Below the pieces are notes generated by a model. That model had not been told where the DNA came from, did not search any database, and saw only the letters and a list, made by a program, of their open reading frames with translations. Position numbers and translations under genes: made by a program. A stretch of 64,000 nucleotides of DNA from a virus (Duplodnaviria > Caudoviricetes): the IMG/VR virus record IMGVR_UViG_3300022305_000561; one strand, written 5' to 3'. Positions 1 through 43,650 of the stretch are shown one piece after another; positions within the stretch are counted from its first letter, which is position 1, and every line of letters starts with the position of its first letter.

Positions 1-102
1 ATCATTAGTTTGGTGGATGTATTCTTTTTCTTTTAGATATATCGCTTTTTTAAAACACTTTTCATATAAAGCTGGATTTTGTTCATAGTTTGGTTGATTC
101 AT
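1..102 (-). CDS. Partial ORF (MNQPNYEQNPALYEKCFKKAIYLKEKEYIHQTND...), runs off the window; candidate third gp41 fragment (C-intein + helicase C-terminus)
   Basis: ATG at 102 overlaps the end of the endonuclease ORF and the frame is open to position 1. The identity is inferred only from position after an unpaired N-intein. Confidence 0.4.
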   Translation of the reverse strand, partial: MNQPNYEQNPALYEKCFKKAIYLKEKEYIHQTND

Positions 103-1159
103 ATTGAGTCCATAATTTAGTAATAAGTTCTTTATATTCTTGCAATTTTGTTTTTTTATCGTCATCTGACCATATAATATTATACATCATACCTCTATCT
201 TCTGCTATAGATTGCTTATATTCGTCCGATAGTAAAGAAGATTGGTAATCATTAAATGGATTTTTCCAATCTTCTATTTTTCTAGCATGCCATAAAATTC
301 CATGATACTCTATTATAACACCTATCTTCTGAATAGTAAAATCATAAAAAAAACCCTGATTAGTTAATTTAGAATTATCCCTTATAAAAAATTCCTTAGA
401 TCCAGTTACACCAAAATATATACTGTCTCTAGGGATACCTAATTTCCTACAGAACTTATACAATGGAATAAAAAACCTTATAGATTCCTTAGAGACATAA
501 CCCCCAGTTCTTCTACTATCCATACCTGCAAGTAAAGATTCCGTTCTAGTTTTATTACAAGAAATATATTTTTTTAGTCCTTTTTCTTCACCATGTCTCA
601 ATATAAACCCATCGAGTGATTGTGACATATTCGCTAAATATGGTATCCTAAGAATCTCAGCTTCTTCGAGGGTATACCCATTTTTAATCCAATAGTCTAT
701 AGAAAATTTTAACTTCTCAGAGTGGTTATCATAACTCAATTTAGTTCGTTTTTTGGCATTTTTAGATTGTATATCGAATACTTTAGAAATAGCGTCGGGT
801 TCCGACATACCTTTGGATATCCAATAGTCCTTTGAGAACCCATTGTATCTATTTTCCGAAACAGGCCTAACCTTTAGTTTATTTTCATATATTATTAACC
901 CTTCTTTACCATACCTCAATAGTATTTTATCTTTATGTTTTGTTATACTTTTATATTTTTTATATAACATAATATGATCTATATCATAAATTTTATATAA
1001 ATCATATAATATCCTTGCTGTACCAAAAATACTACCTTTTGATGTTTCCTTGTCTATTATCGTAAGGAGATCCTTCATAAAAAGGTCTATCTTATCTTTA
1101 GGTAGATTATCAAGTATATTAGTTATTATGGTAGATTCTTGCCAAGTGGTTTTTCTCAT
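83..1159 (-). CDS. Free-standing homing endonuclease, Vsr/DUF559-like (PD-(D/E)XK) C-terminal domain with N-terminal repeats
   Basis: C-terminal FYDFTIQKIGVIIEYHGILWH motif; repeats SKDYWISKGMSEPDA / SIDYWIKNGYTLEEA / RHGEEKGLKKY; sits between split-intein halves; late promoter TATAAATA at 1189-1196. Confidence 0.8.
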   Translation of the reverse strand: MRKTTWQESTIITNILDNLPKDKIDLFMKDLLTIIDKETSKGSIFGTARILYDLYKIYDIDHIMLYKKYKSITKHKDKILLRYGKEGLIIYENKLKVRPVSENRYNGFSKDYWISKGMSEPDAISKVFDIQSKNAKKRTKLSYDNHSEKLKFSIDYWIKNGYTLEEAEILRIPYLANMSQSLDGFILRHGEEKGLKKYISCNKTRTESLLAGMDSRRTGGYVSKESIRFFIPLYKFCRKLGIPRDSIYFGVTGSKEFFIRDNSKLTNQGFFYDFTIQKIGVIIEYHGILWHARKIEDWKNPFNDYQSSLLSDEYKQSIAEDRGMMYNIIWSDDDKKTKLQEYKELITKLWTQYESTKL

Positions 1160-1225
1160 ACATGTATTCCTATGTTTGTGTGTATTACTATTTATAAGAA
1201 TTGGTATTTACCACAAACATAGTGA

Positions 1226-1492
1226 TTAATAAGATTTTAATCTATTACCGACGTTTAGACCCAGGTTAACAGATAATCTACCTAAATCTGAAGGGAATAT
1301 ATGATCTTTAGATACAGTGATACTCTTCCCACTCTTTAAGGTAATACAAACACATTCCTTAGGTTGCTCGTGGTGCACAAACATAGTAGTTTTAAATACA
1401 TCATTGGCTGTAATCCTATCTCCAGGGATTATATCGCCTATTCGCTTTATAGTGCCATCTATTAATTTAACCTTCTCATCCACCCAGATACA
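1226..1492 (-). mobile_element. Split intein N-fragment (88 aa) at the end of gp41 fragment B
   Basis: Cys1 block A (CIWVDEKVKLIDGTIKRIGDIIPGD) and block B (ITVSKDHIF); ORF ends with no His-Asn terminus. Confidence 0.88.
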
Positions 1493-2398
1493 TTCTGAAG
1501 TATTTGTTAAATCTAAATCTGAACTATTGATACCCTCACGATTAGACTGAGTTGCAGATACTAATGGTACATTATACTCAACTGCTAAACCTCTTAGTTC
1601 TTCTGCAATAGACTTGACATAGGTGTAACTATTAACACCAGCCCCAAACTTCATTCTCTGAGACGCACAGATGTTAAGATAATCAACAAAGATGATGTCT
1701 GGGACAAACTCTTTCTTAGATTTCAGTTCTTCAATCAAAGCTCTAAAGTGACCTGTATGAGCTGAAGCAGTTGGATATTCCTTGATGATTAGAGTACCAT
1801 GCGCTTTCTTTCTCAGCTTTTGAATACGACTTTCAAATATACTCTTATCGACAGTTTTGATTTCAGACATGCCTAGATTCAATAGATTAACATCTATTCT
1901 TTCTGCAATACGTTCTTCTGCCATTTCCATTGTAATATATAACACATTCTTTGTTTGGGCTAACGATGCTGCTGCCATATGACACATTACTAAAGATTTA
2001 CCAACACCAGTATTGTGTGATGAAACTCCATTAGTATAATATCTATGGTTATCGTGGTCTACTTGAATATCAACAATAGGTATCCTATTACCAGTCTTTA
2101 CTACATTTCCTTGAATAAGTATGTTCCCTTCTGTTAGATATAACTCATTAGGAATGTCGATTAAGTCTTTAGCATATTGCCAACCTTTATCAGTTTCAAA
2201 TAGATGGTTTTCATTTACCTTAACCTGTATTCCTGAATCCAAAGTAAGAATATATTCATCCCACTCTCCTTTATCAACAAATAAAGATACTGGAACATAA
2301 CCATCGGGTGAAGTCACTTCTATCTCATATCTAGAAGCTAATAACATATCAATATCTCCTATCGATATTTCTTGTTCTTCCCATTCGCTATTAATCAT
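1226..2398 (-). CDS. 41: gp41 DNA helicase fragment B: 129-aa C-intein + helicase core + 88-aa N-intein
   Basis: ...RYYTNGVSSHN|TGVGKSLVMCH (Walker A second half), LYITMEMAEERIAERID, DIIFVDYLNIC, SATQSNR, then DLTNTSE|CIWVDEKV...TVSKDHIFP. Confidence 0.93.
   Translation of the reverse strand: MINSEWEEQEISIGDIDMLLASRYEIEVTSPDGYVPVSLFVDKGEWDEYILTLDSGIQVKVNENHLFETDKGWQYAKDLIDIPNELYLTEGNILIQGNVVKTGNRIPIVDIQVDHDNHRYYTNGVSSHNTGVGKSLVMCHMAAASLAQTKNVLYITMEMAEERIAERIDVNLLNLGMSEIKTVDKSIFESRIQKLRKKAHGTLIIKEYPTASAHTGHFRALIEELKSKKEFVPDIIFVDYLNICASQRMKFGAGVNSYTYVKSIAEELRGLAVEYNVPLVSATQSNREGINSSDLDLTNTSECIWVDEKVKLIDGTIKRIGDIIPGDRITANDVFKTTMFVHHEQPKECVCITLKSGKSITVSKDHIFPSDLGRLSVNLGLNVGNRLKSY
2012..2398 (-). 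mobile_element. Atypical split intein C-fragment (129 aa)
   Basis: Contains block B-like VKVNENHLF, block F IVDIQV and block G SSHN followed by Thr+1. Confidence 0.9.
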
Positions 2399-2430
2399 AA
2401 AATCTCCAATAATAAAGTTATATTATACTA
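2396..2430 (-). repeat. 35-nt -10/RBS/ATG cassette identical to 7906-7940
   Basis: Minus strand TAGTATAATATAACTTTATTATTGGAGATTTTATG at both loci. Confidence 0.9.
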
Positions 2431-2473
2431 AACCAAATGCTTCTAGGTATTTTCCAGAATTAAAACAGTATTT

Positions 2474-2530
2474 CTAATCAATAACCCTCTTTCTCATCCT
2501 GATTCTAATCTTAGTATCAGGATGAACGCA
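2474..2530 (-). mobile_element. Atypical ultra-short split intein N-fragment (CVHPDTKIRIRMRKRVID)
   Basis: Block A motif starting with Cys inside Walker A, immediately followed by a stop. Confidence 0.85.
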
Positions 2531-3112
2531 TCCAGCCAAAAATATGTTAAGGCTTTTCCTCGACAGACCGCCCGAAGTTATGCGGTTGAGTATATCAATA
2601 TCAAACGGAATCTTTTCCTCAACTCTACGATAAAAGTCAAACCTAGAGTCTGCATCATTAAAGTAATCATGTCCAACATTTGTATCAAAGCAAATACTTA
2701 ATGCCTCAGATAACAGATTAGGAATTGCCTCTTGGGTATGTACCTTATCCTTACCTTCAATGATTTGAATTGAATCAAGGATTGCAATATAAACTGCTCG
2801 TTGCTTACAGAAACCTTCAGTGTGTTCTAATAACCAACCTTGATCAATGTCATTATGTGATAAGGATTCAACTAAGGTTTGAGCCTGAGTTAGCTCAGTT
2901 GCATTGATATCCCTACGATTAGAAATCTCAATTGATAAGATTTCAGGTGTTGCTAGTTTGGTAAAGGTTTCAAAGAACTTAAGGATTTCCTCTGATACAA
3001 TAGATTCAATTCTATCTGCAAAGTATTCTTTCTTTAGAAACGGAATGACCTTCCTTGAATACTCTTCATCGTGGATAAGGTTAGAAAGAATTGTAGTTTC
3101 AATTCTGGACAT
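2474..3112 (-). CDS. 41: gp41 DNA helicase fragment A ending in an 18-aa N-intein
   Basis: MSRIETTILSNL...FDTNVGHDYF...RITSGGLSRKSLNIFLAG then CVHPDTKIRIRMRKRVID*. Confidence 0.93.
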   Translation of the reverse strand: MSRIETTILSNLIHDEEYSRKVIPFLKKEYFADRIESIVSEEILKFFETFTKLATPEILSIEISNRRDINATELTQAQTLVESLSHNDIDQGWLLEHTEGFCKQRAVYIAILDSIQIIEGKDKVHTQEAIPNLLSEALSICFDTNVGHDYFNDADSRFDFYRRVEEKIPFDIDILNRITSGGLSRKSLNIFLAGCVHPDTKIRIRMRKRVID

Positions 3113-3396
3113 TAAATACCACCCGAAAATACTGTTTCTCTGTTCTTAAGTGAATCTTCTAAAATCTCAACTAGAATATCACCAATGGTATTCTTAAAAT
3201 TCTTAGATGTTGTATCACCAGCTGATACATGAACCGTATAATCAAAACTTAGAGTTGGTTCATCTGGATCTGGAAACTCAACCTTACCATATGAAAATAC
3301 AGCACCCTTAAACTCTCCTTCCATTATAGAAATGGCAAGAACTTTCTCACCCTCTACATCATAATAATCAATCACTTCATACATAACATTCTCCAC
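3112..3396 (-). CDS. Probable gp40-like head vertex assembly chaperone / conserved T4-like hypothetical
   Basis: Position between uvsX and 41; FSYGKVEF...LSFDY...IGDILVEILE pattern. Confidence 0.55.
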   Translation of the reverse strand: MENVMYEVIDYYDVEGEKVLAISIMEGEFKGAVFSYGKVEFPDPDEPTLSFDYTVHVSAGDTTSKNFKNTIGDILVEILEDSLKNRETVFSGGI

Positions 3397-3417
3397 TTAA
3401 ATTATTAAACATAACAT

Positions 3418-3446
3418 ATTATACTATTTTTCGACTAAAAAGTAAA
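3418..3446 (-). promoter_or_regulatory. Sigma70/T4-early-type promoter TTTACT-N17-TATAAT
   Basis: Exact 17-nt spacing; same pattern recurs at 5838, 7932, 10573, 19817, 20164 and 23547. Confidence 0.75.
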
Positions 3447-3456
3447 GATAAAATTT

Positions 3457-3526
3457 CTACAGTTTTCAATTATTATAAATAGTAATGAAACAAAAAATGC
3501 CAATCACGAGTTTACGATACCCTATA
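3457..3526 (+). repeat. Truncated, ORF-less copy of the endonuclease leader cassette
   Basis: TATAAATAGTAATGAAACAAAAAATGCCAATCACG is identical to 6067-6101; it breaks off at the uvsX stop codon. Confidence 0.8.
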
Positions 3527-3528
3527 AT

Positions 3529-4146
3529 CTATTCTACTTTATCAAGTTCTTCTTCAATATCTTCATCAACAACTTTATCTAGTTCGGCAGTTATTGATTC
3601 GTCAGTTAATAGTTGACCAGTCGCTAACGTATATCTTTCCCTAACCCACGATAAGAATGTTTTATCTGATAAGATAGGCAACCAGAAGTCTTTGGTATCT
3701 GTATCTTTGATACGATATTTCTTTTCTTGTATTTCGCCAGATAATACATCAACCTTAGAATACCATCCATTTGAGGGTTTTATGACATGACCAGATTCCA
3801 AAGCCATTTCGAGCAATCCAGACCATGTGCTAATACCACCTTCAAACTTCACAGTGATTGGAATTTTAGACTTTTCTCTAACGTGTCTAGACTTCTCAAC
3901 ATTAATGATGAAACTATATCCTGATACTTCTGTTCCTTCTTTTTCTTGTTGTCTGCCTATAATGTAAATATTATCGGCGCTTAGGTAGACCCCAGTTCCA
4001 CCACTCACGATAGGTTTACTGTAGAGCTCTTGGGTATTATGAGAAATGATACCATTACTTAAAACATAATCGTGGGTTGGTGTTTCTATATCATAAACAT
4101 ATTCTTTTCGTGAATTAAATTTAATAGACTTAATCATCATTTTCAT
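3529..4146 (-). CDS. uvsX: UvsX (RecA-like recombinase) C-fragment preceded by a 37-aa C-intein
   Basis: MKMMIKSIK...VYDIETPTHDYVLSNGIISHN|TQELYSKPIVSGGTGVYLSADNIYIIGRQQEK...EKSRHVREKSKIP. Confidence 0.93.
   Translation of the reverse strand: MKMMIKSIKFNSRKEYVYDIETPTHDYVLSNGIISHNTQELYSKPIVSGGTGVYLSADNIYIIGRQQEKEGTEVSGYSFIINVEKSRHVREKSKIPITVKFEGGISTWSGLLEMALESGHVIKPSNGWYSKVDVLSGEIQEKKYRIKDTDTKDFWLPILSDKTFLSWVRERYTLATGQLLTDESITAELDKVVDEDIEEELDKVE
4036..4146 (-). mobile_element. Split intein C-fragment (37 aa) of UvsX
   Basis: Blocks F/G (VYDIE...ISHN) and Thr+1. Confidence 0.9.
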
Positions 4147-4901
4147 TTTTTCTTACTCCTACAATTATCAAAATGCCAGCGACCGCTAGCAACAATCATC
4201 TTACAATGGGGGCATTCTCTTTTTTCATGTTTCCAAGTTAAACCAAATGTTGGATTATTTTCACCTTTCCTAGAACCTATCTTAGAAGTTCTTTCGGCAT
4301 AATCCATAGATTTTACCGAATTTATCCTACGAGCTTCTTGTTCTGTTGTAAAGTTATTTCTAACGGTTTTCATGGAAACTGATTTATGATACCAATCAGT
4401 TTCCTTTAAAATATCAAAACAATCATTCATCTCAGCAAAAAATTTTAAACTGTTTCTAATATTAGATAAAGTGAGACCAATCCCCTTTCTTATATCTGGA
4501 GAAGATATCTTCTCTTTTGTGTACATTTCCCAAATACGAGTAGTTTGTGCGATATAATCATCAAATCCATATTTTCTAGCCCATCTATCTTTAATGGATA
4601 TTCCAATATTTTTAGCAAAGGCTCTTCTTATCCAACCGTAACTCTTATTTGATTGCCTCCCAAACCTATTTGAACACATCATCGTACAAGCATAAATCAA
4701 TTTAGAAATATCTGGGTTGATTTTAACCAATAATAAATGTGCCAAATAGTGTTCTTCTGGAGTCAACCTAACTAAATTATCGAGGGTATCTGCTCCGCCC
4801 ATACAAGTTGGTAATATATGATGTACTTCAACATACCCATCTATATGTGATCGTAAAATACCCCTATTGATTAAACGGTTATAATGTTTTAAATAATTCA
4901 T
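4143..4901 (-). CDS. HNH homing endonuclease inserted between the uvsX halves
   Basis: YVEVHHILPTCMGGADTLDNLVRLTPEEHYLAHLLL; C-terminal CPHC...HFDNC zinc motif; late promoter at 4931-4938. Confidence 0.92.
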   Translation of the reverse strand: MNYLKHYNRLINRGILRSHIDGYVEVHHILPTCMGGADTLDNLVRLTPEEHYLAHLLLVKINPDISKLIYACTMMCSNRFGRQSNKSYGWIRRAFAKNIGISIKDRWARKYGFDDYIAQTTRIWEMYTKEKISSPDIRKGIGLTLSNIRNSLKFFAEMNDCFDILKETDWYHKSVSMKTVRNNFTTEQEARRINSVKSMDYAERTSKIGSRKGENNPTFGLTWKHEKRECPHCKMIVASGRWHFDNCRSKKK

Positions 4902-4950
4902 ATTCTTACCTATGTTATGTATATATGAACTATTTATATATTTTAAACTT

Positions 4951-5805
4951 TCAGATAATATCTAAATACATACCCTCATGTAAATCCTCCACTAACACCC
5001 ATTCACCATTCACCTTAAATTTATGTCCCGATGTAAAAGAAAGCGTTGACCCATCTTCCATTTCAATATCAGTAACAAATGCCTCATCATACTTAAATTT
5101 ATTTAAAACTGGCTCAAATCCATTGGTGGTTAATACATTACACCCAACCTCGATATCTTTTAATGATAATGGTCCAGTTTCTGTCGTCACCATCATATCT
5201 TTAGTACCGCACATATAGATATGGTTAACAGCTACCATAGGAATGTCAAACTTCACTAGGTATGGAGTTATCATCCTAAAGATAGACTTCATTTGCTTTG
5301 CTCTTGACATATCTGTAACAGATTTACCATCCTTTGCATCATCAATTTCTTTCTTACTTGACATATTACCCAAGGAATCTACTAAGAATATGATTTTATC
5401 GCCTTTCGTTATGTTCTCTAAATGATTAATAGCATCTAACTTGAATTCTTCCATATTCATAATTGGAGTATGTAGAATTCTCGACTTGTCCATATTCAAT
5501 GAATCAAAATATGATTCAGGTGTTCCAAACTCACAATCATAGAATACCATAATAGATTCTGGATACTTGTCCATATAGGCTTTTGCCAGGATCAAACAGA
5601 AGAAACTCTTAAAGTGTTTTGAGTTACCACAAAACAAAGTAAGCCCAGGAGTTAATCCACCATCTAATCTTCCCGAAAGAGCTACATTCAATGCTGGGAT
5701 TGGTGTTGGGATCATATCTTTTTTCGTAAAGAATTTAGAAACTGCCAATGTGGAAGTTTCTTTGATGGTACTATTTTTCTTCATTCTTGCTAATAACTCA
5801 CTCAT
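4951..5805 (-). CDS. uvsX: UvsX N-fragment followed by an 86-aa N-intein (4951-5211)
   Basis: LNVALSGRLDGGLTPGLTLFCGNSKHFKS, FYDCEFG, DMSRAKQMKS, VNHIYM|CGTKDMMV...FTSGHKF; start MSEL chosen from the GGTGA RBS. Confidence 0.93.
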   Translation of the reverse strand: MSELLARMKKNSTIKETSTLAVSKFFTKKDMIPTPIPALNVALSGRLDGGLTPGLTLFCGNSKHFKSFFCLILAKAYMDKYPESIMVFYDCEFGTPESYFDSLNMDKSRILHTPIMNMEEFKLDAINHLENITKGDKIIFLVDSLGNMSSKKEIDDAKDGKSVTDMSRAKQMKSIFRMITPYLVKFDIPMVAVNHIYMCGTKDMMVTTETGPLSLKDIEVGCNVLTTNGFEPVLNKFKYDEAFVTDIEMEDGSTLSFTSGHKFKVNGEWVLVEDLHEGMYLDII

Positions 5806-5837
5806 ATTATCACCTTTATTATTGTTATGATACAACT

Positions 5838-5866
5838 ATTATAACCCCAAATTGGATAAAAGTAAA
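5838..5866 (-). promoter_or_regulatory. Promoter TTTACT-N17-TATAAT upstream of uvsX
   Basis: Consensus boxes with 17-nt spacer. Confidence 0.75.
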
Positions 5867-5869
5867 GAC

Positions 5870-6046
5870 TTATTTTTCTTCCCATAAACCCATCGGTCCA
5901 AATCTATTCCTAAGTTCTTCTAGATTGGCTGGTTGTCTAGAAACATTGGCATCATTCCAATGGCTCTGTTGGTGCTGATTGAACTGGGTTTTGAGGATCC
6001 AATTATAACAGAAAGGGCATTGATATTCAAGTTTATACGGATTCAT
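5870..6046 (-). CDS. Small C2H2 zinc-finger protein (58 aa), not in the ORF track
   Basis: Hand translation MNPYKLEYQCPFCYNWILKTQFNQHQQSHW...LWEEK*; CX2CX11HX3H; paralog at 25185. Confidence 0.7.
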   Translation of the reverse strand: MNPYKLEYQCPFCYNWILKTQFNQHQQSHWNDANVSRQPANLEELRNRFGPMGLWEEK

Positions 6047-6816: not shown

Positions 6817-7908
6817 CTAAAAGAAGTCATCAAGTGTCGCCTTCTCCTCTAATACCCATCCCATTGGATCAATAATATTCCCTAGAGGATCCAAGAATAC
6901 CTTTTCAAACTGATAATCATAATCCACATATTTGTGAAGCCCAAACTCAACTGGCAACTCAGATGGAAATGCTATCACATTCTCTTTGATTGTGTTGGGT
7001 TTTTTGAGATATATGAACTTGATCTTATCCCCAGACTTGATAGGTGGATATTTGCTTGTCAACCCCAATTCTTTAAGAAGATGATTATACAACAATGCTC
7101 CTCTAACATGAATCGGACAACCTTTAGCATAGATCGATACGTTACTACTATATTCAGCAACACCATTCACACCTCTTGGAAATGCTATATCCTCAATAGG
7201 AATACTCGTAAACTCTTTTCTAGCCAATTCAATGAACTTGATAAGGTCACCATTAGTTCCGTCAAGGATAACGCCTATAGTTGACTTCAGTTTATCTCTA
7301 ATTGCCTGTGGTGTTGAAGACTTTACGATTTCCAAACCCATAATCTTAAGTTTAGGTTGGTCATATTGAACGCCCTCAGAGTTATGAACTCTAAGAATAT
7401 ACTTCTTCTTTCTACACCAAACACCCTTATCAGCCAGAACTTCTCGCTTCATCTGCATCTTGTTTTGAAATGCATTCATATAAGATGCTAGATCAGCATA
7501 AGACTTTTCAATGATTGGAGTTATAACTTGACTGCAAAACTTATCCATGAACTTAATCTTTTCATCAGTTGTTTTACCAACTTGAGTTTGTTCAACTAAA
7601 GTTTCTAATGCTAGGTAAACTGAGTCAGTATCAATCGCAATGATATAATCCTTATCAACAGTCTTCATTGATGTGTTCATATACAAATTAAGAGTATTGG
7701 CGATCCACTTGATCGAAAGTTGACCAGACACAGTAACACTCTCTGCCATTCTCAAATCATAGTATCTAAAGTATGCATTACCCAATGCTCCATATGCTGA
7801 GTTCAAAGCAATCTTCAAAGCCATCTGAAGATTAGTCAGCCGTGAGATTTCTTTCCCTGTACTAACTTTCAACTTTAATAAATCTGAATCACTCATTTCT
7901 TCAAACAT
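6817..7908 (-). CDS. 43: DNA polymerase gp43B (C-terminal fingers/palm/thumb)
   Basis: [38 protein letters not shown]-terminal clamp-binding TLDDFF. Confidence 0.95.
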
Positions 7909-7960
7909 AAAATCTCCAATAATAAAGTTATATTATACTATAAATCATAATAAAAGTAAA
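7906..7960 (-). promoter_or_regulatory. Internal promoter TTTACT-N17-TATAAT and RBS for gp43B
   Basis: -35 at 7955-7960, -10 at 7932-7937, GGAG RBS; 35 nt identical to the gp41-B upstream region. Confidence 0.8.
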
Positions 7961-8078: not shown

Positions 8079-9542
8079 TTACAACCCTCTTCTACTTAAC
8101 TCAGCCTTTATATTTTCATATTTTTGTTCTTCATCTAACATTTGTCTTTTGAATCCAACGCGATTGTTATACATTGTTTCCATTAAACTAGGCAAAAATC
8201 CTTGCTTATCATTCTTATAACACCATCCATTAGCTGAGACAGATAATCCTGTCTCAGGAATAGGTTCTTTCTTAAGCAATCCCTCAATAGTAAGGTTTAA
8301 TCTCGTATCAGCAATCATCTCAGGACTGATGTTATATTGACGAATTAGTGAAGGATATAAACTTGCCAAATCGAACGATGCTACCCATTTATGCATACCC
8401 TTTATAGGATCTTTGACGTATGCACCCTCAAACGCTTCACCTTTAGAATGATGTTCATTGTTAGGAATAACAACTTTCTTCTTCAACAAATCGTTATAGA
8501 TGATAGCATCCCATAGCTTCACAGGACTAAACGCATCATTATAGTTAATCTTTGCTGTATAAGCCATCGTTAGATGTAACTCAATCAACCTTAACTTATC
8601 TTCTAACTTATCAACTATGTCAACATCTTTTATGTTGTAGTCGACGAACAACTCAAAGTCTTTTGTATAGAAGTCCTTGAATGATGCAAACTGACTATGA
8701 TCAACTTTCTTTTCGTCTAACTCAACAAAGCCAATATGGTCAAGTTTATAAGATTCTTGAGTAGTGAATGTGTATTTCTTATAAAGAACGATGTAATCTA
8801 ATGAAGATATACCCACCAGATCAAACATTAGTTCTTCAGTACCACGAATATTAATTTTCTTTTCGTTAACAATATTCCAAGGTGATAACTTCTTATAATC
8901 ATCACCAAGAACCTTTTTGATACGATTGACTAAGTAAGGAATATCAAACAAGTCAGTATTCCAACCTGTGATAACATCAGGCATATTACATTGCCAATGA
9001 GTCAAGAACTTCCTCAATAAATCCTGTTCATTCTTACACAAGACATAGTTGTTTGCAAACTTACCTGTATATGGTCTTGAACCAAAGGTTTTATACTCTT
9101 TAGACTTGTTATCTTGGATAGTGATTAGCAGAATCTCTTCAGCTGCATACTTAGGTTCTGGAAAGGCATCGGCTTCAGTTGCAGTTTCAATATCGATTGA
9201 AACTATCTTCATCAAATCTGAATCGAAGATTATATCTTCAGGATGAGTCTCAGAGATATACTGATAAGCATAGTTAGTTTGACCAAAGATATTGAACGAC
9301 CCAACTCCCTCATAAGTTTTGATGAATTCCTTACAATCATTAATGTTTCCTGGTTTTATCTCATATGCTGGAATATCATTTAATGTAGACCATTCAGTGG
9401 GTACTGATGCAGTTTTAGTATTGGTTGTGTACAAGGTAGGATAAAAGTCTACCTTCTGTTTTTGCGGAAGTCCGTCCCGAATAGAACGAACTAAAAGTTG
9501 ACTGCCATATTGGAGACAGGATGTGTAGAATGATGTTGACAT
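8079..9542 (-). CDS. 43: DNA polymerase gp43A (N-terminal, 3'-5' exonuclease, palm motif A)
   Basis: SIDIET, ITGWNTDLFDIPY, YNIKDV, SFDLASLYPSLIRQYNISPE; ends in the fingers helix. Confidence 0.95.
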   Translation of the reverse strand: MSTSFYTSCLQYGSQLLVRSIRDGLPQKQKVDFYPTLYTTNTKTASVPTEWSTLNDIPAYEIKPGNINDCKEFIKTYEGVGSFNIFGQTNYAYQYISETHPEDIIFDSDLMKIVSIDIETATEADAFPEPKYAAEEILLITIQDNKSKEYKTFGSRPYTGKFANNYVLCKNEQDLLRKFLTHWQCNMPDVITGWNTDLFDIPYLVNRIKKVLGDDYKKLSPWNIVNEKKINIRGTEELMFDLVGISSLDYIVLYKKYTFTTQESYKLDHIGFVELDEKKVDHSQFASFKDFYTKDFELFVDYNIKDVDIVDKLEDKLRLIELHLTMAYTAKINYNDAFSPVKLWDAIIYNDLLKKKVVIPNNEHHSKGEAFEGAYVKDPIKGMHKWVASFDLASLYPSLIRQYNISPEMIADTRLNLTIEGLLKKEPIPETGLSVSANGWCYKNDKQGFLPSLMETMYNNRVGFKRQMLDEEQKYENIKAELSRRGL

Positions 9543-21913: not shown

Positions 21914-22989
21914 ATAATTTCTTTTGCATCAAGATATAAAGATTTCATAAAGGATTTAATCTTATCACGGTTTGTGTCATCAGCGACTGAATCAACATAA
22001 CCCTCAAGCACTTCTAAGGTGTTTTCAATACTTATTTGAGTTGTATCAACAACTCCCTCTGAGAAATCAGACAAATCTTCAAGTATCTTAATCTCATAGG
22101 TATCGCTTTCATAAAGTTTCTTTAGGAACTGATCAAACTTATAATAATCTGTTTTCTTTACTACTACTATTTTGATATACTTCTGTTGAAACTGCTCTAT
22201 ATCAATAGTATCATAATCAACTAATTCATCATTGTATTCGTGTCTAAGAAACATTGTATAGGGATTCTTAATGAATTCTGTTTGTCTTGTTTCTGTATCG
22301 AATATATGAAATCCTTTCTGGTCATTGTAATCAGACCAAGTCATTTCATAAGGAGTGCCGACATAATGAATATTTTCTTTATCAGATTTAGTATGAAAAT
22401 GACCTGAATAAACACCTTCATATTTGGCGAACATTTTGTAATTTATTTCTCCAGAATCAATAAGTTGTTTCAATTCTTTAGATACATCTTGTCCTTTATA
22501 CATCGGAAAATTGGAAAACTCAAAATGCCCGAAGCATAAATCAGATTTACTATCTCGGATAAACTCGAATGCTTCTTCTACATTCTCTTTACATATCCAA
22601 GGAATGATGTCGATAGATGTATTATCGACATCCCATTTTGTCATCTTATCATAAATATGAAGATTTGTAAACTCACCAAGTAATAATCCTGTAGAGTTTA
22701 CAGATAATGATTCACGATAATAAAGATCGTGATTACCCAACAATGTACATAGAACTATACCAGCATCTTGTAGTGGTTGAAAGAAGAACCTTTTACTTTC
22801 AGCCAAAGTATTGAAGTTGATATACTTTCTTCTATCAAACATATCACCAAGTTGCCATACAACTTTAATGTCATTTTCAATAAGATATGGCAGGAAGACA
22901 TTAGTATAAAACTTATCTTGTAGGGCAAGAAAGTTAGGACTATCTGATCTTACGCCAAAATGAGTATCACCGCAGATTGCTATCTTCAT
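21910..22989 (-). CDS. 47: Recombination endonuclease subunit gp47 (Mre11-like)
   Basis: GDTHFG, LGDMFDRRK, GNHD, SGHFH. Confidence 0.96.
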   Translation of the reverse strand: MKIAICGDTHFGVRSDSPNFLALQDKFYTNVFLPYLIENDIKVVWQLGDMFDRRKYINFNTLAESKRFFFQPLQDAGIVLCTLLGNHDLYYRESLSVNSTGLLLGEFTNLHIYDKMTKWDVDNTSIDIIPWICKENVEEAFEFIRDSKSDLCFGHFEFSNFPMYKGQDVSKELKQLIDSGEINYKMFAKYEGVYSGHFHTKSDKENIHYVGTPYEMTWSDYNDQKGFHIFDTETRQTEFIKNPYTMFLRHEYNDELVDYDTIDIEQFQQKYIKIVVVKKTDYYKFDQFLKKLYESDTYEIKILEDLSDFSEGVVDTTQISIENTLEVLEGYVDSVADDTNRDKIKSFMKSLYLDAKEII

Positions 22990-23516
22990 TCAGATATCAC
23001 ATCTAAAGTTTGACAAGTCGGAACTATTACTTTTGGAACCTTTACCTTTCTAACAACATTTGGCAACTCAGCGTCTGAAAACTCAGCCAAGAACTCTCTG
23101 TATGAGTTGACAAACTCTGCATCATCATCTTGTTCTTGAAGTTCAAATACTATGTTACCTACAGATTGGATAATTTTATGTTTAAGTTGATATTGTATCT
23201 TCTCTTTTGCAATCCTACGAAGGTATGCAAAGTATATAATTTGAGTATAATAAGAGAATGGATTGGACGACTTCTCAGGATTGAACTTATCAAAATATCT
23301 GATGCAGTTTTCAATACCATCACAAATCATTTCATCTTTGAATGAGTATCCATTGAAGTTACCCTTGTTGGCAAGATTGTTTGCAATCTTTAGAACACAC
23401 TCACCAAGATAGTTGGTGATTTGAGGTTTCTCATCACCTTCTTTAAGTTTAGATAGAAGTTCTTTTCTTTCAAGTATTGCTGCAAAAAAATCCTTGTTTG
23501 ATACATACTCAGCCAT
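22986..23516 (-). CDS. 55: Late transcription sigma factor gp55
   Basis: YVSNKDF, DEMICDGIENC, NPFSYYTQIIYFAYLRRIAKEK. Confidence 0.95.
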   Translation of the reverse strand: MAEYVSNKDFFAAILERKELLSKLKEGDEKPQITNYLGECVLKIANNLANKGNFNGYSFKDEMICDGIENCIRYFDKFNPEKSSNPFSYYTQIIYFAYLRRIAKEKIQYQLKHKIIQSVGNIVFELQEQDDDAEFVNSYREFLAEFSDAELPNVVRKVKVPKVIVPTCQTLDVISE

Positions 23517-23546
23517 TTCAATCACCTATTAATTAAATATAATAAT

Positions 23547-23890: not shown

Positions 23891-24215
23891 TTACTTAATA
23901 TCCACTTGATGTAACTTAAGATCAAATTGCTCTTCTGAGTAGGCCTTAACTCTCTCGGCAAAGTGATTCAAAGTATGATTCATAGATGACTTATAGGAAA
24001 GGTCATCTGCCACATCGTAAAGCACACAGGATGATTTGCCTTCCCTCAACCTAAGACCTCGTCCTATAGATTGGAAGTTTCGTATTTTACTCTTAGTTGG
24101 ACTAGCAAAGATAATATTCTCAATAGATGGAATATTAATACCAGTAGAGAAAGTTGCGTCAATAGGACGCAATAATAATTGCGCCCCTGACCTCCTGTAT
24201 TTTTTCTGGTAACAT
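23891..24215 (-). CDS. uvsW: UvsW helicase C-fragment, interrupted by TGA + frameshift (4 extra nt at 24158-24161)
   Basis: MLPEKIQEVRGAIIIASY* then ATFSTGINIPSIENIIFASPTKSKIRNFQSIGRGLR (SF2 motifs V/VI) in the next frame. Confidence 0.8.
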
Positions 24216-25087
24216 TAAGATAGCCTTTTAGATTTCGATTTATCCTTCACCCAATAAAATCCTATTGGGCACTCTTTTGTTTTTGTTTTATTTATACCAT
24301 CTGTCCAAATCCTTAAACCTACTCTAGAGGATTTTTGCCTATCCCTAAAATCCTGATCCTCCCACATCGTTTTTATTTTTTCTCCAGCATCTAATCGCTT
24401 ATCAATATTTGTATTGACTATTAACATCTTTTCATTAAAAGCTATTTTATATTCATCATCCCTTTCATCCCATACTTTTTGTTGAGAAATAGAGGATTTT
24501 ATTTTTTCTTCTGGTCTATTCTTAAACTCAGACTGATATTCTGAAAACGATATTCTACGATCATCAGTCCAAGAATCCTGGGATGATTGTTTATGCTTAG
24601 CCTTTGTTTCAGGATTTAACATGTGTATGTGTATAGATGTTGATATACCATTTTTCACTTGTTCTCTTGCTATGATAGCTCGCTTTGCTCTGAATCCATC
24701 GTATTTTTCGGTATCTTTTTTTAGAACTTCCCACGCTGATGTAGAACCCTTAGACATCATATCTCTATATTCTTCAGAAGTCAAATCACTTCTCATAAAC
24801 CTAAGAGGGTTTATGAATTTATTTATAGGATATGCCTGAGCCAACAGTTTATGTGCCTGAACGTGGGTTGAATATTCTAATTTTACTAGATTCCAAGAAC
24901 AATCTATAAACTGAGGGAATATGCTCTTAGGTAATATGTGATGTATTTCGGCATAAACGCCCTCATTGCATACTTTTGTTATTAAACTAAGATATTCTTC
25001 TAGATATGATAAAGATTCTGGAGCACCTAATTCTTCATCTAATTTTGATTGAAAAAAAATATTATTATATATACTTATGCTGGTCAT
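24215..25087 (-). CDS. HNH homing endonuclease inserted in uvsW
   Basis: AEIHHILPKSIFPQF..CSWNLVKL...HVQAHKLL; C-terminal IWTDG..KT; family leader at 25078-25180. Confidence 0.88.
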   Translation of the reverse strand: MTSISIYNNIFFQSKLDEELGAPESLSYLEEYLSLITKVCNEGVYAEIHHILPKSIFPQFIDCSWNLVKLEYSTHVQAHKLLAQAYPINKFINPLRFMRSDLTSEEYRDMMSKGSTSAWEVLKKDTEKYDGFRAKRAIIAREQVKNGISTSIHIHMLNPETKAKHKQSSQDSWTDDRRISFSEYQSEFKNRPEEKIKSSISQQKVWDERDDEYKIAFNEKMLIVNTNIDKRLDAGEKIKTMWEDQDFRDRQKSSRVGLRIWTDGINKTKTKECPIGFYWVKDKSKSKRLS

Positions 25088-25180
25088 AATGGTTTCCATT
25101 GTTGAATGATTAGAGTTAGTGGGTTCCGAGGCCGCGACTAACACCTTTTACTATACTATTTATAAGAATTGGAAACTCTA
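25078..25180 (-). promoter_or_regulatory. Endonuclease leader (late promoter + hairpin)
   Basis: TATAAATA at 25157-64; GTTAGT/ACTAAC stem 25115-25142; CTCTAATCATTC; ATGACCAGCA. Confidence 0.8.
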
Positions 25181-25184
25181 GATT

Positions 25185-25354
25185 ATGAATCCAGACAAAC
25201 TTGAATATCAATGCCCCTATTGCCACGAGTGGATATTGAAAACTCAATATAGCAACCACGAAAACTTGCATATCAATGAATGGTTAATGCACCAACAACA
25301 CTAGATGAACTAGAACGAAGATTAAGACCTTTGGGATTGTTTGACGAAAGATAA
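25185..25354 (+). pseudogene. Paralog of the 5870-6046 C2H2 zinc-finger gene, frameshifted after the finger
   Basis: MNPDKLEYQCPYCHEWILKTQYSNHENLH...* (stop 25302-04); homologous tail PTTLDELERRLRPLGLFDER* in another frame, ending at 25354. Confidence 0.7.
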
Positions 25355-26725
25355 TTTAATTTTGTTTGCTATCCAAATATCACAAACATCGTCATTTAAG
25401 GTTATATCTTTAGCAAACTTAACCTCGCCAGATGTCATTTTTATTTTTTCATTATTAGGCACTTTTATATCTATTCCTTTGAATGTAAATATTTTTCCAT
25501 CAAACTCATTCTCTGTTTCCTTTCTTATGTATTCCCTATCCTCAGTCTTGACTTCACCAGACACATAAAATATTTTTCTACCATCTTCAGCTCTATCAAC
25601 AATCATCTTATGTAGAATCTTACCGTGTTTAGCAACAAACTGAAACAGGACTAAAGTGTTACCATCTTGTTTCAAGGCAAGGTTAGTTATAAACTTATTC
25701 CTTCCTTCGTGGGATACAAGAAAGTCCATTTCATCTTGGTACTTCATACCTTTATATAACTTCCTAACTTCTTCTGGATATTTCAATAACAAACATTTAA
25801 TATCAAGTTGAACGACTCTATTTGAATCCATCAACTGTTTGGTAGTAATAACCCTATGAAGAGGTCCCATTATTCCTTCAAGTTGAAGTTGATTCACTTG
25901 TGAGTTATCTATTGTACCAGTAGTTCCAATTCTATACTTGACGTCAGTCATATTCTCAAACATAGAAGTGATTGAGGCACCCTTTGCTAAATGTGCTTCA
26001 TCACATATTACCGCATCAAATTGGTTGTAAAAGTCTTTACCAATACCATCTAATGCCCCACCTGCTTTGTTACGCCATGAACTCTGCCAAGTAGTAATAA
26101 GAACATTCAACGAGAAGTCTTTTGAAAGACCTGAGTACAATTTCTGACAGTTATCTTCTGTTGACCAATTATTACCAGTTGAATAATCATCAAAGTCCGC
26201 ATACAACTGCTCAACTAACGAAGTCGTTGGCACAATGATAAGAACTTTCATATTCTTCGCCAAGAACCATCTAATCAACGTATAGATAATCAAACTCTTA
26301 CCAGAAGCAGTAGGCGATAAGAGTACAGTCTTGCAAGTATTCAAAGATTTATGAATAGCGTCTATTTGATAATCCCTTATCTCAATAGGCGTTCCTTTTG
26401 AACAAGGATTAATTATCTTTGCAAATCCTTCTACTTGTGCAGAAGTAATACCCATATCATAGGATATATCGGTATCTATTTCTAATGTGTGATTATTCCT
26501 TTCTGCAAACTCTTTTACATAATCAATAAGACCAGAATACAACTTTTTAGTTTGAAGATTATATAAACGACTGAACCCGTCCCAAAGTCGAGCCTTAAAT
26601 TTCGGGGAGAACTTAGCTCCTGGAACTGGGAACTTAAAGAACTCTGATAATTCTTGTTCTGTAGATGGATCAGAGAATAATCTTATATGAACTTCATTCA
26701 TTTTTTCAACTTTGATTAATGTCAC
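25322..26725 (-). CDS. uvsW: UvsW helicase N-fragment with a 60-aa non-helicase tail
   Basis: RDYQ, SPTASGKS, IVPTTSLVEQ, DEAH, GTTGT, LVLFQF...HG; lacks motifs V/VI. Confidence 0.92.
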   Translation of the reverse strand: MTLIKVEKMNEVHIRLFSDPSTEQELSEFFKFPVPGAKFSPKFKARLWDGFSRLYNLQTKKLYSGLIDYVKEFAERNNHTLEIDTDISYDMGITSAQVEGFAKIINPCSKGTPIEIRDYQIDAIHKSLNTCKTVLLSPTASGKSLIIYTLIRWFLAKNMKVLIIVPTTSLVEQLYADFDDYSTGNNWSTEDNCQKLYSGLSKDFSLNVLITTWQSSWRNKAGGALDGIGKDFYNQFDAVICDEAHLAKGASITSMFENMTDVKYRIGTTGTIDNSQVNQLQLEGIMGPLHRVITTKQLMDSNRVVQLDIKCLLLKYPEEVRKLYKGMKYQDEMDFLVSHEGRNKFITNLALKQDGNTLVLFQFVAKHGKILHKMIVDRAEDGRKIFYVSGEVKTEDREYIRKETENEFDGKIFTFKGIDIKVPNNEKIKMTSGEVKFAKDITLNDDVCDIWIANKIKLSFVKQSQRS

Positions 26726-41236: not shown

Positions 41237-42202
41237 CTAACCTGTGAAAAATGATAATGGAGCAGACTTATTCATCAACTCATCTTCAAGGTCTTTAATT
41301 TCCCCAACAGATTCATCATACATTCCTTGACCATCAATTTGAACGCCCCCTGGAAGTAACATACCACTGAACTTCTTAAGGTTAATCCCCCATTGCCTTT
41401 TGAATAGACCTGTTGTATAATGTTTCAACCAAGGCTCAGACCAAACTTTATTATATTCTGTTGGGTCTAAGGCACGATAGCATTGAGCAACAACATATTG
41501 ACCAACATATATTTCAGTAGCCCAATCAATATCAAGGAACAACTTGCCTTGATATCTGTTGAATCTTATAGTGGGGATTCGGTTCAACTCAAAATTTACC
41601 ATATCAAGATAACTCATTGCTGTGGTATAATAGATCATTGATATAGAAGAAAGGTCAGCAAAACTATTCAGCCTCAGTTGATACTGGATATTATTGAATA
41701 GGTTTTGTGAGTTTTGGTAAGTATTACCAATGGGAAGGATATTGGTGATACCATAGACTAAATCAGGCACATTGATAAATTGATTATCATACACACCCTT
41801 TACTACTGGAATTGTACCAAGAACTGCTGAACGAGTTGGAGTTGTGATAGTTTCGCCAGCAACGAATGTGCCAAATATCTTATAAACTAAAAGAGTTGAC
41901 CCAGATGAAACAGAAGTGCCTTCGTGAGTAATAAGGGCAGTTGCGCCAGAAGTTGATCCAGTGACAGTTTCTATTAGGGTAAAACTACCAGCTGTTGCAG
42001 TTGTTAGATTAAGCCTTGAGGCTGTAATCAATTGCTTCATGTAGATTTGTTCAACACCATCAGAGTGATACTGTCTCCAGTATTCTAAGGCATCATCAAT
42101 TCTATCTTCTAATTGATCATCATCCACGTTTATTTCTAAAACTGGAGCACCAAGAGCACGAAGGCAGTATTGTTTCAGTTCTTCTCTACTATGAATTGCC
42201 AT
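41237..42202 (-). CDS. 13: Neck protein gp13
   Basis: LKQYCLRALGAPVLEINVDDDQLEDRID, KRQWG.NL.KF...LPGG. Confidence 0.95.
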   Translation of the reverse strand: MAIHSREELKQYCLRALGAPVLEINVDDDQLEDRIDDALEYWRQYHSDGVEQIYMKQLITASRLNLTTATAGSFTLIETVTGSTSGATALITHEGTSVSSGSTLLVYKIFGTFVAGETITTPTRSAVLGTIPVVKGVYDNQFINVPDLVYGITNILPIGNTYQNSQNLFNNIQYQLRLNSFADLSSISMIYYTTAMSYLDMVNFELNRIPTIRFNRYQGKLFLDIDWATEIYVGQYVVAQCYRALDPTEYNKVWSEPWLKHYTTGLFKRQWGINLKKFSGMLLPGGVQIDGQGMYDESVGEIKDLEDELMNKSAPLSFFTG

Positions 42203-42250
42203 ATTTAATTCCTATATTGATATGACAGTATTTATATAAATGATTTACTC

Positions 42251-42288
42251 ATACATAAAAAGGATAGGAGTTACCCTATCCTATGTAT
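42251..42288 (-). terminator. Terminator/hairpin after the tail fibre cluster
   Basis: AGGATAGG-N5-CCTATCCT inverted repeat with a T tract on the minus strand. Confidence 0.65.
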
Positions 42289-42293
42289 CAATA

Positions 42294-42446
42294 CTAGGGC
42301 TGTGTAGGCCAAACGATAACAGAAACCTTAGTAACTCCAGCTGGAGCAACCCATGTATATGTCCCACTAGAGGTATATGCTTGTTGACCAGTAACACTAG
42401 TAAAACTTCTTAGATTTTGAAAAGCACCTTGAAGAATACCACTCAT
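42294..42446 (-). pseudogene. 50-aa chimeric remnant (fibre-tip N-terminus + chaperone-like C-terminus)
   Basis: Hand translation MSGILQGAFQNLRSFTSVTGQQAYTSSGTYTWVAPAGVTKVSVIVWPTQP*. Confidence 0.55.
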
Positions 42447-43129
42447 GTTAAGCCACTCCCAGAGATCAACCACGTTGTCGCTGTTATTTTAATTGCAGTA
42501 GCTGAACCATACTGAGCTAGTGAACGTGTGCCTGTAGTACCAGCAGAACTTAAGTACATGGTGTCTGTAGTGATTGCAATACTGAGAACTTGTGAAGTCA
42601 TATTGATAAAAGTAATAGCTGTACCAATAGCATAAGCTACAGAGCCATTGGCAGGGATTGTAAACGTACGAGCATTAGCATCAGTTGATGGGTGGAAAAT
42701 GTGCTTACCAGAATCTGCCAAAACTAAAGTGTATGCTGCGCTCTGGCTGTTTTGGGGTATATTTAAATATCCAACGCTTGATGTACCGTTTACTGTACAG
42801 TTAATTAAGTTACCAGAAGTAGGTGTACCTAGTACAGGCGTGACAAGCGTAGGTGAAGTGGATAATACATTATCACCAGACCCAGTTGATGTGGTAACAC
42901 CTGTACCACCATTAGCAACAGCAAGCGTGCCAGCAAGTGTTACAGCACCAGTAGTTGCTGTAGAAGGTGTCAAGCCTGTAGTGCCTCCGTTGAATGATAA
43001 TACAGCCGTATCAGTAGTCAATAAAGTTCCAGATGTTGTTGGGGCAGTAATAACCACTGAACCCGCCACTGCAGGAGCTTGGATTGTTACTGTGCCAGAG
43101 GTATCTCCAGCGATTACTATGCTACTCAT
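42443..43129 (-). CDS. Tail fibre shaft/adapter protein
   Basis: GTLAVANGGTG, SPTLVTPVLGTP, YTLVLADSGK...WLISGSGLT. Confidence 0.7.
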   Translation of the reverse strand: MSSIVIAGDTSGTVTIQAPAVAGSVVITAPTTSGTLLTTDTAVLSFNGGTTGLTPSTATTGAVTLAGTLAVANGGTGVTTSTGSGDNVLSTSPTLVTPVLGTPTSGNLINCTVNGTSSVGYLNIPQNSQSAAYTLVLADSGKHIFHPSTDANARTFTIPANGSVAYAIGTAITFINMTSQVLSIAITTDTMYLSSAGTTGTRSLAQYGSATAIKITATTWLISGSGLT

Positions 43130-43642
43130 TTATGCGCTCCAAATAGCGGTTGGTATAGTTGCCCACGATTCAACCTCTAGAGGCGAATCAATGATGATCT
43201 GTCTGAGAGTTGCTCTATAGGTATCAAACTCTGACACATTCTGCAACTTTGATCTAACATCGACCAATGCTGAGAAATCTGATTCTGTCAGTAGTCGTTT
43301 TGCCTGAGCAACATTAGAATCTCTTTTGACTTGCTCGGATGCGGCAATGGCAGCACCCTCTTGTTCTGCTACAGTATGAACGACTGATTCGCTATCGGTG
43401 TATTCTTGGAACCTTGGAACTATGCTCCAAGTCTGTTCCCAGTTTTTCTTTTCTGATAGTGTAGGAGCAATCTCAATCAATCTTTGAGTATTTATATCAT
43501 ACACAGGCTGAGGCGAGATGAATACGTTTGCATACTCCGCAGGTGCTTGGAAGACTGTTGGGAATGAAGTATTTGGAAACAGATTTCTTATATCTTGTTC
43601 TGATACTGGGTATTCTTTTGTTTTGATTTTTATATAAGCCAT
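43130..43642 (-). CDS. Tail fibre assembly chaperone-like protein
   Basis: YPVS...FPNTSFP; LTESDF...YRATLRQI...W..IP; position after the fibre tip. Confidence 0.65.
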   Translation of the reverse strand: MAYIKIKTKEYPVSEQDIRNLFPNTSFPTVFQAPAEYANVFISPQPVYDINTQRLIEIAPTLSEKKNWEQTWSIVPRFQEYTDSESVVHTVAEQEGAAIAASEQVKRDSNVAQAKRLLTESDFSALVDVRSKLQNVSEFDTYRATLRQIIIDSPLEVESWATIPTAIWSA

Positions 43643-43650
43643 TTGTGTTC

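Follow-up and report, generated by a model that had tools for sequence, protein, structure and literature searches.

In the 64,000-nucleotide stretch of phage DNA analysed here (the window; IMG/VR virus record IMGVR_UViG_3300022305_000561, Caudoviricetes), the gp41 helicase of a T4-like phage is very probably made as three separate polypeptides, which two protein trans-splicing reactions would join into one enzyme of 453 residues. All open reading frames (ORFs) of the gp41 locus lie on the minus strand, four of them in series within the first 3.1 kb: piece A, piece B, a gene for a Vsr-like endonuclease, and the start of piece C. Piece A consists of extein A followed by the N-terminal fragment of a first split intein (IntN-1), piece B of the C-terminal fragment of that intein (IntC-1), extein B and the N-terminal fragment of a second intein (IntN-2), and piece C of IntC-2 followed by extein C. 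At junction 1 the basic, 18-residue IntN-1 would dock into the nearly complete, acidic, 129-residue IntC-1, and at junction 2 IntN-2 and IntC-2, the latter with a helical extension of about 55 residues, would ligate B to C.

The helicase parts are identified by family, by structure and by an intact allele. Residues 1-194 of extein A match positions 160-361 of the DnaB-like helicase family PHROG 19 (E value 2e-36), and extein B matches positions 362-523 of the same family, Pfam DnaB_C, and the T4 gp41 structure 8due (E value 1.5e-39); pieces A and B jointly cover PHROG 19 positions 160-523. A sister phage (L005), with 87-95% nucleotide identity across UvsX and gp41, carries gp41 as a single uninterrupted ORF of 453 residues that contains both NIFLAG^TGVGKS and DLTNTSE^SIGLPQTCDL, the caret here and below marking a splice junction. 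Extein A is identical to this allele at 100% of its amino acids and extein B at 98%, and the three exteins joined in silico (194 + 173 + 86 = 453 residues) agree with L005 gp41 at 445 of 453 positions without a gap, both predicted junctions reading exactly as in the intact protein. Given that the exteins sum gap-free to an intact gp41, the gene is split into three pieces and no more, and what splicing is predicted to yield are sequences that occur in nature. The joined pieces amount to a complete gp41/DnaB-family helicase, with an N-terminal domain and a RecA-type core that holds Walker A, Walker B, H3 and H4. A preliminary description of the locus, made from its letters, had proposed a gp41 in at least three pieces with two different split inteins whose splicing would rebuild IFLAG^TGVGKS and DLTNTSE^S; the intact allele confirms both junctions and fixes the number of pieces at three. 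Likewise, its parsing of piece A as ending in IntN-1 and of piece B as running from IntC-1 to IntN-2, with a Vsr-like ORF next in line, agrees with the PHROG 19, Hint and fold matches, and its reading of the whole as three-way trans-splicing gains support from the intact sister allele, from low ratios of non-synonymous to synonymous substitution (dN/dS) in both inteins, and from many independent contigs.

The third piece begins in the window and continues beyond it. A tblastn search with an intact cyanophage gp41 as query found no helicase C-terminus elsewhere in the window. The 34-residue ORF start at the left edge agrees, however, at every residue (100%) with how piece C begins in a related locus (L082) and with the beginning of a protein of 185 residues, P0197, which comprises a 99-residue IntC-2 ending in ...DILTKN and then continues as SIGLPQTCDL, its extein C being 86 residues in all. 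By these identical first 34 residues, by contig statistics that match those of piece B (2 contigs, the longest of 140,089 bases) and by a shared lack of any exact match on record, P0197 is almost certainly the piece C of this genome; its 185-codon ORF would need 456 more bases to the left of the window. Exact look-ups of the endonuclease, like those of piece B and P0197, gave no record, and the first 45 bases of the window did not occur in the viral and metagenome collections. The preliminary description had anticipated an IntC-2 ending in (H/K)N^S, and the end in this probable same-contig protein is KN^S.

Intein 1 interrupts Walker A itself (AG^TGVGKS), with Cys1 and Thr+1 as nucleophiles, and is by its sequence a VidaL-type, atypically split class-1 intein and a relative of VidaL. 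VidaL is a naturally atypically split, Cys-dependent intein with an IntN of 16 residues, split after the second strand (PDB 6vgv/6vgw). Its full name is VidaL T4Lh-1, and it comes from a T4-like helicase gene of a Lake Vida metagenome. Residues 7-128 of IntC-1 match residues 22-141 of the 6vgv chain (E value 2e-8), about one third of the aligned residues being identical in an alignment read by eye, and IntN-1 alone gave no match among PDB sequences, 18 residues being too short to score. An atypical split of this type is marked by an IntN of about 25 residues or fewer (here 18) and by blocks B, F and G all lying in the IntC, as they do in IntC-1. VidaL and intein 1 have in common a split just past the first strands, a long IntC, dependence on Cys and an IntN of very few residues (16 in VidaL, 18 in intein 1); the relationship is nonetheless distant, and the intein here shares its helicase with a second split intein and has no endonuclease gene between its halves. 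The gap between pieces A and B is a mere 75 nucleotides (2399-2473), free of any endonuclease gene. A related locus, L083, carries at site 1 a contiguous mini-intein of 139 residues; the first ten or so residues of IntN-1 align to its start, which places the break near residues 10-18 of the L083 intein, and relative to this contiguous form the split one has gained two extensions, a basic one at the end of IntN and an acidic one at the front of IntC. The motifs SSHN^TG.GKS and TSE^C recur across the homologues of piece B (counts for pieces B and C, here and below, refer to the best 120 protein clusters for each in a large protein collection).

Intein 2 is inserted at TSE^S, which by analogy with DnaB appears to lie within or beside the DNA-binding motif H4; the S(I/F)GLP..(A/C)D that directly follows site 2 is what we read as motif H4. 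Neither site 1 nor site 2 is the site of gp41-1 to gp41-7 (SGY^SSS, position 356 of P-SSM2 gp41), as the preliminary description had correctly said of gp41-1, and the gp41-1 site lies presumably some ten residues upstream of site 2. IntN-2 matches the Hint module, the gp41-1 intein structure (6qaz) at an E value of 2.8e-7, and the IntN of gp41-8 at 53% identity over 38 residues; the core of IntC-2 is 64% identical to gp41-8 over 44 residues. The intein has Cys1 and Ser+1, with a Lys before its terminal Asn, and both fragments have the sequence features of a canonically split class-1 intein, with the penultimate His replaced by Lys. Intein 2 is thus, to judge from its two fragments, a canonically split intein related to gp41-8 at a different insertion site. 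Like gp41-8 (Dassa et al. 2009; sequence from the supplement of Pinto 2020), a fast-splicing active split intein, it is split canonically, with an 88-residue, basic IntN and an acidic IntC. It differs in its flanks (TSE^SIG here, LNR^SAY in gp41-8), in its end (KN here, HN there) and in the length of its IntC, which is 45 residues in gp41-8 and 79-103 residues across the 120 piece-C clusters, owing to a conserved helical N-terminal extension. The KN^S end stands in 117 of the 120 clusters, and the longer string ...LFYCN.ILTKN^S(I/F)GLP is common to P0197, L082, L083 and a further locus, L002. The extension amounts to about 55 extra residues and is modelled as a helical hairpin (predicted local confidence, pLDDT, 78-92); the rest of the piece C model is uncertain (mean pLDDT 61.6), including the intein core, as expected for a lone split fragment. 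In an exhaustive search the extended IntC-2 occurred almost exclusively as the N-terminal part of proteins about 175-220 residues long and was linked to no known domain; two longer candidates were found, of 586 and 298 residues, and the former could be a contiguous form.

Several points weigh against a helicase assembled by two ligations. IntC-2 and extein C lie outside the window, and P0197 is assigned to the same contig through its first 34 residues and its contig record. The penultimate residue of intein 2 is Lys and not the usual His, and block B reads SxxH or NxxH instead of TxxH. That these particular sequences splice, and in which order, we infer from their make-up, and the orthogonality of the pairs is argued from split topology and charge.

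The Lys opens the way to the likeliest of the alternatives, in which junction 1 alone is spliced, intein 2 is dead, and piece C is held non-covalently by the intein halves and the helical extension. The substitution is nearly universal (117 of 120 homologues), and an extra helical module modelled with such confidence (pLDDT 78-92) could be a docking device. Yet throughout the family Cys1, Ser+1 and the terminal Asn are kept with few or no exceptions, the IntC core retains its 64% identity to a fast-splicing intein, IntN-2 evolves at a dN/dS of 0.05, and an unspliced intein would sit in the DNA-binding loop region of the helicase. A dead intein 2 is consequently improbable.

Less probable still is that gp41 is a decaying remnant broken by selfish elements while the phage uses another helicase. 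The region is indeed rich in mobile elements, with UvsX and gp41 both fractured and the DNA polymerase split, and a second helicase gene exists in the window (25322-26725); that gene, however, belongs to PHROG 16, a family different from the DnaB-like one, and the sequence of gp41 does not behave as a remnant should. Set against L005, extein A shows 20 synonymous differences and not one (0) that is non-synonymous. Set against L082, the dN/dS of IntC-1 is 0.09, that of IntN-2 0.05, that of extein B 0.03 and that of the endonuclease 0.16, very strong purifying selection on exteins and inteins alike, with no frameshift or internal stop. Given such low values in the intein fragments, these are being maintained, unlike a dead remnant. 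Moreover, the exteins sum exactly to the intact gp41, and lineages more than 35% apart in sequence have kept the layout. Synonymous divergence (dS) may also bear on how the inteins arrived: relative to L005 it is 0.72 in extein B (1493-2011 against L005:3427-3945), about four times the 0.18 of extein A, and relative to L082 it is 0.67 and 0.93 in the inteins, below that of the intervening extein, which is saturated. Both patterns would fit inteins acquired together with flanking DNA.

The three-piece layout is widespread in metagenomic phages and not singular. Among 80 IMG/VR loci one further three-piece gp41 was found (L002), three had intein 1 only, two had intein 2 only, and the rest were intact. 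Among the 120 piece-B clusters, 39 have the order IntC-1, extein, IntN-2 (the window's own and 38 others), and 68 are two-piece forms in which intein 1 stands alone. In 6 clusters intein 1 is contiguous, in 4 it is contiguous and accompanied by a split intein 2, and in 2 intein 2 is the only one present. In L082, where piece B is 88% identical to that of the window, the order is piece A, an antisense HNH gene, piece B, a Vsr-like gene and a piece C of 189 residues. The three-piece locus thus recurs in independent assemblies (L002, L082 and the piece-B clusters, from JGI, ENA and Logan contigs), and intermediates are seen as well: the contiguous intein 1 of L083 and loci with intein 1 only or intein 2 only, with or without endonuclease genes. 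L083 itself joins the contiguous intein 1 to a split intein 2 and has no endonuclease gene in its gp41. Among GenBank phages, a megablast search with window bases 1-6000 gave no match, and hence no close relative. A cultured Tequatrovirus, Shigella phage ESh36 (L086, ON528746, 1361-4341; an unverified record), has a gp41 fractured at the equivalent of TSE^S (..DIAE^C). A Vsr-like gene is present there too, the IntC is extended and ends in KN^S, and the pieces are annotated merely as primase/helicase and hypothetical protein. Although the data are metagenomic and a contiguous intein 1 does exist in relatives, an artefact of assembly or gene calling (a chimeric contig of phage variants, or a contiguous intein 1 with a stop codon from sequencing error) is hardly credible, given that the same split with its charged tails and piece B leader recurs in JGI, ENA and Logan contigs, that split and contiguous forms differ by evolved basic and acidic extensions and not by a point change, and that the 35-nucleotide leader is conserved in L082.

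A third split intein lies next to the helicase locus, and its presence gives the question of partner choice its edge. UvsX is fractured by a canonical split intein (Table 1), and the pair is real, as the preliminary description had held: the product spliced in silico, with the junction VNHIYM^TQELYSK, is identical to the intact UvsX of L005 at 359 of 366 residues. A tblastn search with all intein parts as queries found no further intein in the window beyond these known parts. The three inteins resemble each other pairwise only in their catalytic blocks. Were IntC-1 and IntN-2 to react with each other, piece B would be circularised or concatenated, and chimeric proteins would result if either reacted with the UvsX halves. 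Partner choice is probably achieved by different split points between the two gp41 inteins and by charge for UvsX: the net charges are +4 for IntN-1 and -16 for IntC-1, +3 for IntN-2 and -10 for IntC-2, and -10 for the UvsX IntN, whose IntC has a basic head, a polarity opposite to that of the gp41 inteins. Given that IntN-1 lacks block B, it could not complete IntC-2, and IntN-2 would duplicate most of what IntC-1 already contains. A bolder possibility, and a tentative one, is that the three-piece helicase is an evolved, obligate assembly line and not debris of selfish elements that the phage tolerates. In it, three co-expressed pairs would have been selected for strict partner choice by split points and opposite charge polarity, and the IntC-2 extension with its KN end would be a new module, guiding the second ligation or setting its timing.

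Table 1. Features of the gp41 and UvsX loci, with positions in the window.
Feature	Position	Strand	Details
Piece A	2474-3112	-	212 residues: extein A (194) + IntN-1 (18)
gp41 extein A, N-terminal domain to first Gly of Walker A (...NIFLAG)	2531-3112	-	PHROG 19 match
IntN-1, 18 residues, Cys first, net charge +4	2477-2530	-	stop codon 2474-2476
Piece B leader, 35 nucleotides: TATAAT-like box, GGAG ribosome-binding site, ATG	2396-2430	-	in the gap between A and B
Piece B	1226-2398	-	390 residues: IntC-1 (1-129) + extein B (130-302) + IntN-2 (303-390)
IntC-1, 129 residues, acidic head, net charge -16, block B NENH, blocks F/G	2012-2398	-	ends SSHN, then Thr+1 of TGVGKS
gp41 extein B, 173 residues, Walker A (TGVGKS) via motif H3 to ...DLTNTSE	1493-2011	-	DnaB_C, PHROG 19
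IntN-2, 88 residues, canonical, Cys first, block B SKDH, net charge +3	1229-1492	-	stop codon 1226-1228
Hairpin in endonuclease leader, 3' arm abutting ribosome-binding site	1168-1225	-	-16.1 kcal/mol, z -2.9
Putative Vsr-like (EDxHD-type) homing endonuclease gene, free-standing, 358 residues	83-1159	-	predicted fold
Piece C start, 34 codons, N-terminal helical extension of IntC-2	1-102	-	ATG at 102, runs leftward off the window
Fractured UvsX gene	3529-5805	-	canonical split intein, Thr+1, HNH endonuclease between halves
UvsX IntN, 86 residues	4954-5211	-	
HNH endonuclease gene between UvsX halves	4143-4901	-	
UvsX IntC, 37 residues, joined to UvsX-C	4036-4146	-	

The ORF between pieces B and C is Vsr-like (EDxHD-type) by its predicted fold and encodes a putative homing endonuclease. 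Its 358 residues gave no Pfam match, and a five-sequence profile found nothing among PDB sequences. An AlphaFold2 model built on 43 homologues (pLDDT 90.6) places a catalytic domain at residues 220-358 (nucleotides 86-502), behind a helical N-terminal part, and compares well with I-Bth0305I (3r3p; Z 9.6, root-mean-square deviation 2.5 A over 95 of 97 residues) and with E. coli Vsr (1cw0; Z 9.2). All 43 homologues have E256, D273, E284 and H291, and nearly all have D332, the equivalence of these residues to the Vsr catalytic positions being putative. The protein thus shares with I-Bth0305I and other Vsr-like (EDxHD) endonucleases the catalytic fold and conserved acidic and His residues, but its sequence similarity to them falls below detection by Pfam and by the PDB profile search, and its N-terminal 220 residues form a different, helical region. 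A candidate cleavage target is the intein-less sequence around TSE^S in L005. A T4-type late promoter box, TATAAATA, stands in the loop of the leader hairpin at 1189-1196, and a late sigma factor gene is found at 22986-23525; a hairpin with a T4 late promoter is the known leader design of fractured-gene endonucleases (Dassa 2009, PMC2677866). The start of the piece C ORF overlaps the endonuclease stop by 20 nucleotides. The leader of piece B has an exact second copy at 7906-7940, before the second half of the split DNA polymerase, where 0 copies would be expected by chance, and its counterpart ahead of the L082 piece B shows 94% conservation.

An endonuclease gene between intein halves, the mark of a fractured gene, is present at junction 2 and absent at junction 1. 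In the relatives L002 and L082, junction 1 does hold an antisense HNH gene. The split arrangement probably arose by invasion: a Walker A mini-intein would have been broken by an antisense HNH endonuclease gene, later lost in this phage, and intein 2 travels with its Vsr-like endonuclease gene behind the hairpin that contains the late promoter.

Other features of the window touch the same themes at a distance. The gp43 DNA polymerase is split into ORFs at 6817-7908 and 8079-9542 on the minus strand, which match PHROG 262 positions 7-496 and 500-851 and carry no intein. In L083 (1-4521) the DNA polymerase is intein-split, an ORF of 310 residues opening with an IntC that ends in ...ICVHN and is followed by Ser. 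The second helicase ORF of the window (25322-26725, minus strand) matches PHROG 16 positions 222-543 of 986 and is followed by an HNH homing endonuclease ORF (24215-25144); the region 24215-26725 may be another endonuclease-interrupted gene. Base composition is uneven, G+C being 0.41-0.45 at 42000-46000 and about 0.34 elsewhere, and the rise lies over ORFs of tail fibre and virion structural families.

Among the nearest known systems are the fractured gp41-1 to gp41-9 loci (Dassa et al. 2009, PMC2677866), with which this one shares the Vsr-like endonuclease family, the leader with hairpin and late promoter, and UvsX as a neighbour. The gp41-7 locus has no endonuclease, like junction 1 here (Dassa 2009, PMC2677866). 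Each of the loci of Dassa 2009 is, however, described as broken in two, whereas the gene here is spread over three polypeptides by two split inteins of different kinds. The replicative helicase DnaB of Mycobacterium smegmatis (Kelley et al. 2018, PMC6195587), of the same superfamily, likewise carries two inteins, in the P-loop and in motif H4, but both of these are contiguous inteins of a single polypeptide that splices in cis, and the P-loop site (GK^S) lies four residues downstream of the G^T used here. A parallel in design is engineered three-fragment ligation (Pinto 2020; triple-vector dystrophin, PMC11271493), in which a middle fragment has an N-terminal IntC and, at its C-terminus, the IntN of a second intein. 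Such designs need pairs that do not cross-react, and combinations of a canonical with an atypical intein have been used (Pinto 2020; PMC11271493). The engineered systems are designed, whereas the locus here is natural, has presumably co-evolved inside a gene that is essential, and is met again in many lineages of phage. Literature searches for a natural three-piece protein with two split inteins gave engineered systems only, and for an extended, KN-type IntC gave no report, the original VidaL papers lying outside both searches, so that a prior mention of either is possible. Judged from the sequences, every component is of a known kind, and the natural three-piece combination is without a report found in the literature searched.

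The locus and its roughly 40 relatives offer to three-fragment ligation engineering a supply of intein pairs on which selection has probably acted for joint function within the same cell, among them a VidaL-like pair with an IntN of 18 residues and a pair that resembles gp41-8 but has a new accessory helix. If the three pairs are truly the parts of an evolved assembly line, they would constitute a natural, co-evolved orthogonal set of one ultra-short IntN pair and two canonical pairs. Related contigs preserve what would be the successive steps, from contiguous mini-intein, through splitting by an endonuclease gene, to the loss of that gene. More broadly, an essential replication enzyme that would exist only after two protein-ligation reactions widens what is meant, at the level of protein, by genes in pieces.

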